Shown piece after piece: positions 18,434 to 21,471 of a stretch of DNA of 64,000 nt. The position numbers and the translations under genes were made by a program. Position 1 is the stretch's first letter. Each line of letters opens with the position of its first letter. The stretch comes from an uncultured bacterium (GTDB lineage: Bacteria > Acidobacteriota > Aminicenantia > UBA2199), in the NCBI GenBank assembly GCA_965603365.1, contig CBFDCR010000012.1, positions 21,935 through 85,934 of the forward strand, read 5' to 3'. Below the pieces are notes generated by a model that had not been told where the DNA came from, searched no databases, and saw only the letters and a program-made list of their open reading frames with translations.

Positions 18434-18685
18434 GGTAACCCACAACATTTTGTCGGTACAACGTCTCATTTTGCCGGTACATTACGACAAAACGGCGGTA
18501 CAACACGACAAAGTGGCGGTACAATGTGACATTTGTCCGGTACAATGCGATATTTTTATGGTCCGCGTGATATCTTTGCGGTACAACATGACAGAATGCC
18601 GGTACAATACGATATATTTCCCGTCCCCACGACATTTTACCGGAACAACACCCCATTTTGGCGTTACCACACGCCATATTGAAGG
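18434..18685. repeat. degenerate tandem array A, about 11 units of 21 bp (consensus CGGTACAAYRYGACAWWWTGN)
   Basis: Units start at 18454, 18475, 18496, 18517, 18538, 18579, 18600 and so on. The region is open in several frames on both strands, as expected for a stop-free repeat. Confidence 0.75.
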
Positions 18686-19255: not shown

Positions 19256-19271
19256 ATTGCTGGAGACGACA

Positions 19272-19574
19272 ATGGCAGAAGTTATACGTATCAATGAAAA
19301 TATAAAAGATATTTTATTAAAACATACCCAAAAGCAGACCCCGGAAGAGAGTCTCAATGAGATATTAAAGAATGAAATCCACAGAAAGATTAAGAGATAC
19401 CTTTTGATGGTTAGACATTTTGAGAGGAAATATAATACTGATTTTGACCGCTTTGAGGCGATGAATAAAGACACCAGGATGGATTATGAAACGGAAAAAG
19501 ATTACTTTGACTGGGACATGGCCGTCACTGCCTTAGAAGATTTACATACGGAATTGACCCAACTCCAGCCATAA
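19272..19574 (+). CDS. hypothetical helical protein (antitoxin-like size and charge)
   Basis: 100 aa from ATG 19272 (MAEVIRINENIKD...). No family recognised. Confidence 0.4.
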   Translation: MAEVIRINENIKDILLKHTQKQTPEESLNEILKNEIHRKIKRYLLMVRHFERKYNTDFDRFEAMNKDTRMDYETEKDYFDWDMAVTALEDLHTELTQLQP

Positions 19575-19581
19575 AAAACTT

Positions 19582-19926
19582 TTTGAGGAACCCAAAATAG
19601 TAATAAGACAAACATCAGATAAAATTGTAGCAACATACGATGAAAAACAATTTTATGCCCTGAACAATGTAATTATTTTAAAACTTAATCATAATATAGA
19701 TCTTAATTACAAATTCATTCTCTGATTTCATCAAAGAAATCAAAAATCAAAAGACATCCCTCTCCAAGAAAGAAGAATTTGACTTAATGGGTCTATTTGA
19801 AGAACAAAAGTCCAACACCCTGACCCTCCAAAAGGAAATTGACCAGGTCGACAGAGAAATCGACCAGATGGTATATCAATTATACGGGCTGACCGACCAG
19901 GAGATTAAGATCGTAGAGGAGTCATA
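19582..19926 (+). pseudogene. remnant of the C-terminus of a type IIG / Eco57I-like restriction-modification enzyme (frameshifted, 5'-truncated)
   Basis: Own translation, frame A 19582-19725: FEEPKIVIRQTSDKIVATYDEKQFYALNNVIILKLN... (TaqI-like specificity-domain pattern). Frame B 19727-19926: ...LQKEIDQVDREIDQMVYQLYGLTDQEIKIVEES* (typical C-terminal tail of these enzymes). Confidence 0.6.
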
Positions 19927-19972
19927 ACGCAATTTTCGGTTGTCCCCTATTTTTCGTCCCGAAGTGTCCGTT

Positions 19973-20311
19973 TCCGGACAAAATTTCTCTGATGTCAGAG
20001 AAAATCTTTCCGACGTCAGATAAAATTTCTCCGATGCCGGACAAAATTCTTCCGATGCCAGACAAAATCTTTCTGATGTCAGACAAAATTTCTCCGATGC
20101 CAGATAAAATTTCTCTGACGCCAGACAAAATCTTTCTGATGTCAGACAAAATTTCTCCGATGCCAGACAAAATCTTTCCGACGTCAGACAAAATTTCTCC
20201 GATGCCAGACGAAATTCCTCTGATGCCAGACAAAATCTTTCTGATGATGTCAGACAAAATTTCTCCGATGCCAGACAAATTTTGTCCGATAACGGACACC
20301 ATTTATCCGTC
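19973..20311. repeat. tandem array B, 16 units of 21 bp (G[TC]CAGACAAAAT[CT]T[TC]TC[CT]GA[TC]) with 42-bp alternation
   Basis: Units counted by hand from 19973 (one 24-bp unit at 20225). Alternating variants are GTCAGACAAAATTTCTCCGAT and GCCAGACAAAATCTTTCTGAT. Confidence 0.9.
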
Positions 20312-20387
20312 GTCGTCGAGTAACATTTACTCGTGGTTGGCAATCACCTCTTAGCAATAACTACTTGAGGATGCCGCCTCAATGCTC

Positions 20388-20416
20388 TTGACTTTTTTGT
20401 TATGGTTCTATACAAT
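20388..20416 (+). promoter_or_regulatory. promoter TTGACTTTTTTGT...TACAAT for the propeller/rSAM gene string
   Basis: TTGACT at 20388-20393, 17-nt spacer, TACAAT at 20411-20416. ATG 20422 begins 6 nt after the -10 box. Confidence 0.5.
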
Positions 20417-20421
20417 ATGAA

Positions 20422-21471
20422 ATGATAGAAAAGAGGGTTCCGTGCATTGAGGAGTGGGAGGTATTGCCCAAAGCTGGGGCGTTTTATAAGAGAGTCACTG
20501 TGTTTATCCTGTTTGCGGTATTACTTCACTGTGCCTTTTATGCCAGCCAGGTGGATTTGCCGGAAGTATTGGCCCCTGCCTCTATCCATGTATACGGCGG
20601 CCGAATGTTCATTGCCGAAGCCGCGGCCATTCACATTTACTCGTTGAAGGACTTTAAACAGATAAAGCAATTTGGTCGGCAGGGTACGGGGCCGGGTGAG
20701 TTTTTCCGGGATACCAGACTCACCGTTTTCCCGGAGAGACTCGTGGTAAACACCTTTGGAAAACTGATCTTTTTTTCCCATGATGGCCTGTTGATGGAAG
20801 AGCACAAAAAAGCCGTTGAAATTATGTGGATATATCCGGTTGGCGATTGTTTTGTGGGGTCTGAGTTTGTACCCAGGGTTCAGAAAATCAACATCTATGA
20901 TGGAAATTTTCATCGTGTAAAAAATATCTTCGAGGGCTCGATCGGCTGGGTCTCATATTTCGAGAGCGGAACCGCAAAACAGGACCTCATTATGGTCAAG
21001 GATTACGCTGCACCGCATGTTTATAAAGATAAGATCTATATTTTTGATTCATCGAAGGGTTTCTTCTTTGCTGTTTTTGACAGCAGTGGAAAGAAGATTT
21101 TTGAGAAGAACATAGAGTATAAACCGCCGAAGGTCAGCGCCGACTACAAGAAGGAGAGGTTGAGACGGCTGGAAGAATCCCCCTGGTTCAAGAGTAGCAA
21201 AGATAGGTTTAATCCTGTATTCCCCGATTTCTTCCCTCCATACCGGTCGGTACGAATTTCAGATGACAGGATATACTTCGTTACTTATCTAAACATCGAC
21301 AATAAAGATGAAGTCGTCGTCACCGATTTAGAGGGCAATCTCATAAAGAAAACGTACATCCCCGCCACCCTTTACGACAAATACATCTTTACCATCAGCG
21401 GCAATAAGGTATACTCTCTAATTGAAGACGACAAAGAAGAATTATGGCAATTACTCATAGGAGATTTATAG
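20422..21471 (+). CDS. six-bladed beta-propeller-like exported protein (paralogue of 29758-30759)
   Basis: FGRQGTGPGEF motif and repeated beta-strand pattern; hydrophobic N-terminal segment VTVFILFAVLLHCAFYA. An alternative start is TTG 20464, preceded by GGAGTGGGAGG. Confidence 0.6.
   Translation: MIEKRVPCIEEWEVLPKAGAFYKRVTVFILFAVLLHCAFYASQVDLPEVLAPASIHVYGGRMFIAEAAAIHIYSLKDFKQIKQFGRQGTGPGEFFRDTRLTVFPERLVVNTFGKLIFFSHDGLLMEEHKKAVEIMWIYPVGDCFVGSEFVPRVQKINIYDGNFHRVKNIFEGSIGWVSYFESGTAKQDLIMVKDYAAPHVYKDKIYIFDSSKGFFFAVFDSSGKKIFEKNIEYKPPKVSADYKKERLRRLEESPWFKSSKDRFNPVFPDFFPPYRSVRISDDRIYFVTYLNIDNKDEVVVTDLEGNLIKKTYIPATLYDKYIFTISGNKVYSLIEDDKEELWQLLIGDL

Follow-up and report, generated by a model that had tools for sequence, protein, structure and literature searches.

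The tandem array at positions 19973-20311 of the window, the 64,000-nucleotide stretch of DNA from an uncultured bacterium that was analysed, is almost certainly a non-coding member of a dispersed class of repeats with a period of 21 bp and is not specific to the operon beside it. The original prediction had described a phased protein-binding array and compared it to iterons, centromeres and enhancer-like sites. Phased binding of a protein is still the best reading and a candidate class of protein can now be named, but the analogies to iterons, centromeres and an operon enhancer fail. It is proposed, with confidence that falls a little short of even, that the arrays are phased operator-like sites for XRE/CI-type paralogues, and that the copy in the window is an orphan.

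Tandem Repeats Finder applied to the window reported the array at 19977-20290 with a period of 21, 14.8 copies, 79% matches and a score of 363. In the register of the original prediction the units start at 19973, 19994 and so on to 20270, which gives 15 units. The sixteen units counted there are acceptable, as the 15 clear 21-bp units are followed by a decayed 16th at 20291-20311; two decayed units in all lie after 20290, the divergence being progressive. The features of the element and its surroundings are listed in Table 1. Every unit is an imperfect dyad, AGACAAAA/TTTCTCCG, with 21 bp from centre to centre, and the outermost units of the array at 19973-20290 approach the perfect palindrome GGACAAAATTTTGTCC. 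A hairpin scan revealed two 16-bp palindromes that bound the array, TGTCCGTTTCCGGACA at 19965-19980 on the left and TGTCCGATAACGGACA at 20283-20298, inside the tail, on the right. The two ends of the array pair in inverted orientation with matches at 19 of 21 positions because the unit itself is palindromic. In the autocorrelation of the array the self-identity was 0.78 at a lag of 21, 0.80 at a lag of 42 and 0.85 at lags of 63 and 105. Since the identity at lags of 63 and 105 exceeds that at 42, the higher-order pattern consists of two-unit and three-unit blocks and not of a clean 42-bp alternation. Both of the unit types quoted in support of such an alternation are present, but they alternate only in part, with two-unit and three-unit blocks mixed.

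Table 1. Coordinates of the repeat element, the features around it, other copies of its family, and relatives rich in the associated gene family. Positions without a contig handle are those of the window.
Feature	Position	Strand	Basis or remark
Second, decayed 21-bp array of a different family, core GCCGGTACAA	18447..18650	+	Tandem Repeats Finder 18475-18525
Relic 3' end of an Eco57I-type (type IIG) restriction-modification gene	19787..19927	+	46-codon ORF
Leader (left end): TGTCCCCTATTTTTCGTCCCGAAG then palindrome TGTCCGTTTCCGGACA	19941..19985	+	common to family copies C88, C20, C130; hairpin scan
Core array, 15 units of 21 bp, consensus GACAAAATTTCTCCGATGCCA	19973..20290	+	Tandem Repeats Finder, unit table, autocorrelation
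Unit 13, 24 bp due to a GAT insertion	20225..20248	+	unit table
Tail (right end): three progressively diverged units GACAAATTTTGTCCGATAACG, GACACCATTTATCCGTCGTCGTC, GAGTAACATTTACTCGTGG	20270..20336	+	
Sigma-70-like promoter TTGACT-17-TACAAT, outside the repeat element	20388..20416	+	10/12 consensus matches
First downstream gene, 6-bladed beta-propeller protein of the radical-SAM peptide cassette	20422..21471	+	weak DUF5128 and TolB_like matches
Long family copy, about 20 units	C88:16910-17340		
Long family copy, about 15 units	C11:86588-86912		
Shorter family copy	end of contig 1		
Family copies with 1-3 units only	C44, C48, C35, C30		
Family copies with the left end only	C20, C130		
Relatives rich in the two-domain XRE family	G001, G002, G004, G006, G017, G021		

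The palindromic units raise the question of an RNA function, in which a transcribed string of hairpins would act, as REP elements do, as a stabiliser, a terminator or a protein sponge. Folding of the two strands is much better than that of shuffled sequence (z = -4.3 and -9.4), and hairpin-plus-T-run sites are found at both ends of the array. However, good folding is automatic for tandem quasi-palindromes, and the fold obtained is one giant self-paired hairpin, in which the predicted pairing joins distant units. REP and BIME elements are marked by stable single-unit hairpins in alternating orientation and an associated RAYT transposase; the units here are direct repeats, and their dyad has a loop too short for a stable stem in a single unit. 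The array region has no Rfam match, the search of Rfam 15 having returned only chance-level miRNA matches far below the gathering threshold. The orientation of arrays relative to neighbouring genes, although suggestive in some families with small numbers, is inconsistent across families. A role as RNA is therefore considered very unlikely.

Three overlapping open reading frames of 120-155 aa run through the array as originally reported, and a heptad-repeat protein such as ...PDKISPM... had been offered as an alternative to a binding array. In each of the three long copies of the family the PDKISxM frame stays open, and the sole indel in the 19973-20290 array is of 3 bp. Of the 63 single-base substitutions possible in the unit, however, one alone gives a stop in the PDKISxM frame, so that the open frame is uninformative. 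The coding reading was rejected because indels break the frame and the variation lacks codon periodicity: the indels between units across arrays include 26 that are not multiples of 3 as opposed to one that is, and the variation per column shows no 3-base periodicity (z = -1.6). Furthermore, one copy has a 7-bp indel in its conserved tail, the ATG is located inside the unit and lacks a ribosome-binding site, and Pfam gave only repeat artefacts for the ORFs of the array. A protein product is thus scarcely credible.

The repeat family to which the array belongs occupies about 11 loci in the genome, three with long and about eight with short copies. The copies have in common a leader, TGTCCCCnATTTTTCnTCCCGAA, followed by the palindrome. 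The tail of three diverged units in fixed order is found also after the copies on C88, C44, C48 and C35, and tails related to that at 20270-20336 follow the copies on C11 and C1. The common leader and tail indicate that the locus is a modular element comprised of a leader, a variable number of units and a tail; copies truncated to one end also exist. The mean difference between units is 3.7 positions inside the 19973-20290 array as opposed to 5.4-5.8 positions between arrays, a result indicating that the array was homogenised or expanded locally. Terminal inverted repeats beyond the palindrome of the unit, a target-site duplication and a transposase were looked for and not found. The family was absent from 40 relatives, from a collection of species-representative genomes and from viral contigs. 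Toxin-antitoxin pairs are common beside copies of this family. A 105-aa ORF upstream of the array (19257-19574) has a weak paralogue, with 34% identity over 53 aa, at C1:181141-181461, immediately in front of a further array of this family, the one at the end of contig 1.

A census was conducted with Tandem Repeats Finder on the whole 5.3-Mb Aminicenantes assembly (163 contigs, 49% G+C, 85% complete), using gene calls from a long-ORF heuristic of our own and not from a trained gene finder. The period was 21 in 105 of 173 tandem-repeat loci at a score of at least 80, and in 212 of 413 loci at a score of at least 50. Of the 133 arrays with four or more copies, 88 had a period of 21 and eleven more a period of 20, 42 or 43. 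Arrays of at least 84 bp numbered about 126 and totalled 26.5 kb. The spacing of units across arrays (n = 756) was 21 bp in 729 instances, 22 bp in 18, 20 bp in 7, and 19 bp and 24 bp in one each. When rotation and strand were allowed for, 84 well-defined arrays fell into about 22 families at no more than 6 mismatches. Past 6 mismatches the distances between families resembled those obtained with shuffled units, apart from a slight excess at 7-8 mismatches, indicating that unrelated sequences share one period. Compared with shuffled units, the units are enriched in dyad symmetry (p = 6e-5), which is nevertheless not universal. Variability between units is column-specific in 57 of 71 arrays, and in some of these invariant blocks alternate with blocks that vary in almost every unit, as in ACGTCA-NNNN-TGACG on contig 99; in the 19973-20311 array it is partly the amplification of two-unit and three-unit blocks. 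Arrays of different families are often side by side. Many contig ends bear arrays (for example C40:155, C123:1, C48:1, C35:1 and C86:10), especially of the family whose 43-bp double units have a GATATC core, and since arrays break the assembly at contig ends the census is an underestimate. The search of the genome for other arrays, proposed with the original prediction, therefore yielded largely what is expected of a generic satellite, with the family recurring at its roughly 11 loci and the period in more than 100 arrays. Nothing relevant was found in the literature on tandem repeats of Aminicenantes or on 21-bp intergenic repeats.

These numbers bear directly on the analogy to plasmid-type iterons or a partition centromere, which was suggested by direct repeats of about two helical turns, like the 17-22 bp of iterons. 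Iterons and the sopC locus of the F plasmid are present once per replicon beside rep or par genes, and the units of sopC carry a short dyad. Helix-phased direct repeats are a feature in common with both, and a short dyad in each unit with sopC, but neither the single locus per replicon nor the rep or par neighbour holds for the array in the window. More than 100 such arrays are on ordinary chromosomal contigs, and no gene for replication (rep) or partition (par) lies beside the array, the flanks of which are the Eco57I-type relic and the beta-propeller gene. The likelihood that the array is an iteron or centromere locus is considered negligible.

The array is located at the edge of the radical-SAM peptide cassette. 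Upstream of it, residues 13-46 of the restriction-modification relic are 71% identical to the C-termini of two open frames of approximately 1000 aa on C35 and C32, of which the C35 frame bears Eco57I, TaqI_C and N6_Mtase domains. The stop codon of the relic is 13 bp before the leader and 46 bp before the start of the array. The intact contig-35 paralogue of the relic likewise ends beside an element of the same repeat family. Farther upstream, 1.3 kb from the array and beyond a stand-alone precursor-peptide gene, the decayed second array has units that resemble family 9 of the census. Downstream, the 20388-20416 promoter belongs to the peptide cassette. The ATG at 20422 is 6 nt past the -10 hexamer with no ribosome-binding site in front. 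The mRNA of this first cassette gene may be leaderless, or translation may in fact begin further downstream. For the same gene, metagenome contigs gave a single distant relative and genome contigs gave none. The exact sequence of the radical-SAM protein is without a record, and an orthologous locus was not identified in species of the same genus, where the best matches to the radical-SAM enzyme are 42% identical.

The gap of 77 nt between the end of the array at 20311 and the -35 box at 20388 was confirmed. This proximity to a strong promoter is what would be expected of a dedicated upstream regulatory site of the radical-SAM peptide operon, enhancer-like or repressor-loading, through which the array might affect the neighbouring promoter. 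The copies on C11 and C44 also have consensus promoters approximately 75-95 nt past the tail and pointing away. On the other hand, the array lies at the cassette edge beside a decayed restriction-modification gene, other copies of the same family are found in unrelated contexts, and the class of arrays has no preference for gene starts over gene ends. Classified by flanking genes, arrays in co-directional, divergent and convergent spacers are in the ratio 46:23:13, mirroring the 277, 139 and 66 kb of intergenic DNA of each kind, which indicates that the arrays are intergenic in proportion to the available DNA. Arrays are near stop codons as often as near start codons, and genome-wide they show no preference for promoter-bearing spacers or gene starts. 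The position upstream of the operon is consequently no evidence of a role there, and the enhancer-like role at this operon is not upheld by the unrelated contexts of the other copies and the lack of a bias towards promoters and starts. A dedicated function at the operon is unlikely, and the lesson of the window is against reading the array as a regulator of the peptide operon in particular.

Clustering of the genes flanking arrays identified eight small helix-turn-helix genes of the XRE family, and a profile built from the eight found 21 full-length paralogues in the genome. An array of at least 84 bp is located within 400 bp upstream of 7 of the 21 paralogues, compared with 2.06% of all genes (odds ratio 26, p = 1e-7). 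When weaker or decayed 20-21-bp arrays are counted too, 11-12 of the 21 have one upstream. None of 13 other HTH_3 ORFs had an array nearby. All eight of the paralogues within 3 kb of an array are within 400 bp of it, seven with the array upstream and one with the array downstream, whereas the baseline for that distance among genes in such array neighbourhoods is 16%. Every array linked to a paralogue is from a different sequence family, and several extend up to or into the start of the linked XRE gene, the arrangement expected of an autoregulatory operator. Among the matches of the proteins are HTH_3, HTH_19 and Phage_CI_repr as well as the 434, P22 and ImmR repressors. The AlphaFold model, with a mean pLDDT of 80, predicts a five-helix DNA-binding domain and a three-helix C-terminal domain, and the full-length SinR chain 1b0n aligns to the model over 117 columns, though with an rmsd of 9.9 A. 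The family consensus varies at the first residues of the recognition helix, which we take, judging by 434-type repressors, to be the pattern expected with diversified DNA specificity. The results indicate that the arrays are statistically tied to an expanded phage-repressor-like family, the members of which may bind the arrays.

Counting against the repressor-operator reading, only about 8 of the approximately 126 arrays adjoin a gene of the XRE family, and the large array families 1, 3, 6 and 9 have no linked XRE gene in the 85%-complete assembly. Moreover, 15-20 sites are to our knowledge far more than in any known operator. Restriction-modification methylase genes are also found beside arrays, in 5 of 13 cases compared with 5% of all genes (p = 3e-4), and part of the XRE association could therefore reflect variable genomic islands.

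A candidate partner of the array in the window was found among 24 XRE-type genes examined, only one of which, C33:35271-35744 on the minus strand, has upstream units like those at 19973-20290. Four matches to the unit were found upstream of this gene at no more than 6 mismatches, compared with 0.036 expected. The upstream region consists of about 18 heterogeneous 21-bp units, of which the type TTGCACCTAATTTCTCCGACGCC matches the 19973-20290 unit at 16 of 20 positions, and the gene-proximal boundary of this array resembles the leader of the element in the window. The resemblance of the units suggests that this paralogue is the probable cognate gene of the 19973-20311 family.

The XRE gene family is present in 14-31 copies in six relatives from four genera with genomes larger than 5 Mb, and in 0-1 copies in 34 others with smaller genomes. 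Some of the copies in the large-genome relatives sit as tandem pairs. Arrays in the relatives were sought by running Tandem Repeats Finder on samples of 240-400 kb and accepting periods of 20-21 or 43 with at least 3.5 copies. All five XRE-rich genomes sampled were positive, with 8, 4, 4, 9 and 2 arrays, as opposed to none of three sampled genomes that are without the XRE family. An upstream 20-21-bp array was found for 5 of 26 paralogues sampled in the relatives, while in the random samples none of 19 arrays was beside an XRE-family gene, such genes being too few in those samples. For an orthologous pair from two species of the genus, with 71% protein identity, the units are related and show 7 differences in 21 positions, a closeness reached by 0.3% of random pairs. 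The largest array family, family 0, and a close orthologue of its linked gene are both absent in five relatives, in which the best orthologue of the linked protein is 46% identical. Array families and paralogues both turn over quickly.

A substantial possibility is that the element is a neutral or selfish minisatellite, of the kind of the BrickBuilt or MIRU elements, that spreads as a module of leader, units and tail, expands by replication slippage and has no host function at the locus; the link to XRE genes would then mark where arrays first arise or are tolerated. Several of the results are as expected for such an element. Arrays are proportional to intergenic DNA with no positional bias, the repeat families are species-restricted with quick turnover, truncated copies have the leader only or the tail only, arrays of different families are often adjacent, and there is enrichment in restriction-modification and toxin-antitoxin islands. 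A selfish minisatellite nevertheless leaves unexplained the exact 21 bp in about 22 unrelated families, the alternation of conserved and hypervariable columns in the unit, and the tight, upstream-oriented adjacency to one gene family, and the search for non-unit terminal inverted repeats, target-site duplications and a transposase was negative.

The closest architectural relative of the 19973-20311 element is BrickBuilt, a minisatellite MITE of Porphyromonas gingivalis with 23-nt tandem units (Klein et al. 2015, PMC4596501). The likeness lies in spacer-free units of about two helical turns (23 nt versus 21 here), in a conserved leader and tail with small inverted-repeat ends, and in many strictly intergenic copies confined to one species. 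The differences are that no sequence relationship exists, that about 22 unrelated unit families have one period here, that no target-site duplication was found here, and that the arrays here are linked to a DNA-binding gene family and not to a transposase. MIRU of mycobacteria and BOX of pneumococcus are also dispersed intergenic tandem repeats with variable internal modules and conserved ends. The element in the window resembles these in its dispersal between genes and in a variable number of modules between conserved ends; however, the units of MIRU and BOX are 40-100 bp, they form one or few families, and no constant period extends across unrelated sequences.

On the side of the protein, the operators of the CI repressor of coliphage 186 are two helical turns apart on a protein wheel (PMC3675496). 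The dyad sites described here are likewise two turns apart, which would put successive helix-turn-helix dimers on one face of the DNA. However, phage 186 has three operators as opposed to 10-20 sites here, and 186 CI forms a 14-mer wheel whereas the paralogues have a three-helix C-terminal domain according to the model. The structure of 186 CI (2fjr) matches the paralogues over residues 17-94 only (E = 0.0028), and homology that would include the wheel-forming C-terminal domain was therefore rejected. The two-domain XRE repressors of the SinR, 434 and P22 type have a predicted fold in common with the array-linked gene family but differ in that their known members bind few sites. In the literature no SinR/434/P22-type repressor was found reported with arrays of 10-20 sites or with approximately 20-30 paralogues per genome.

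The explanation preferred here is that the element is a dispersed non-coding minisatellite, consisting of leader, about 15 units of 21 bp and tail, and that its units, imperfect palindromes two helical turns apart, would serve as operator-like sites. Most likely a lineage-expanded set of two-domain XRE/CI-type repressors gave rise to the class of arrays and probably still binds it. In these proteins a helix-turn-helix domain is joined to a helical C-terminal domain, and the latter may have a role in oligomerisation. One array family appears to correspond to each paralogue and to lie in front of that paralogue's own gene. The arrays would grow and shrink locally by slippage or unequal exchange, and the period of 21 bp may have been fixed by the need for successive sites on one face of the helix to be occupied by a cooperative protein oligomer.

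One length of two helical turns in about 22 unrelated repeat families demands a molecular ruler, and we know of no described system that accounts for one. The association with the repressor family is the first concrete and testable candidate for the 21-bp ruler. A more far-reaching proposal, possible though doubtful, is that some Aminicenantes have a system of 20-30 paralogous XRE/CI-type repressors, each with a 21-bp-phased operator satellite of its own, the satellites having multiplied to more than 100 loci. The ruler would be the geometry of a cooperative oligomer wrapped around or coating the arrays, which would serve across the genome as platforms for loading, insulating or titration and not as ordinary operators.

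Arrays beside NRPS, PKS or radical-SAM genes amounted to 8-9% compared with 5%, a difference that was not significant. Two giant NRPS genes flank an array of 13 units from the largest family at C19:32507-32783; the array is 17 and 27 bp from the gene ends according to the heuristic gene calls, and appears to be inside an operon.
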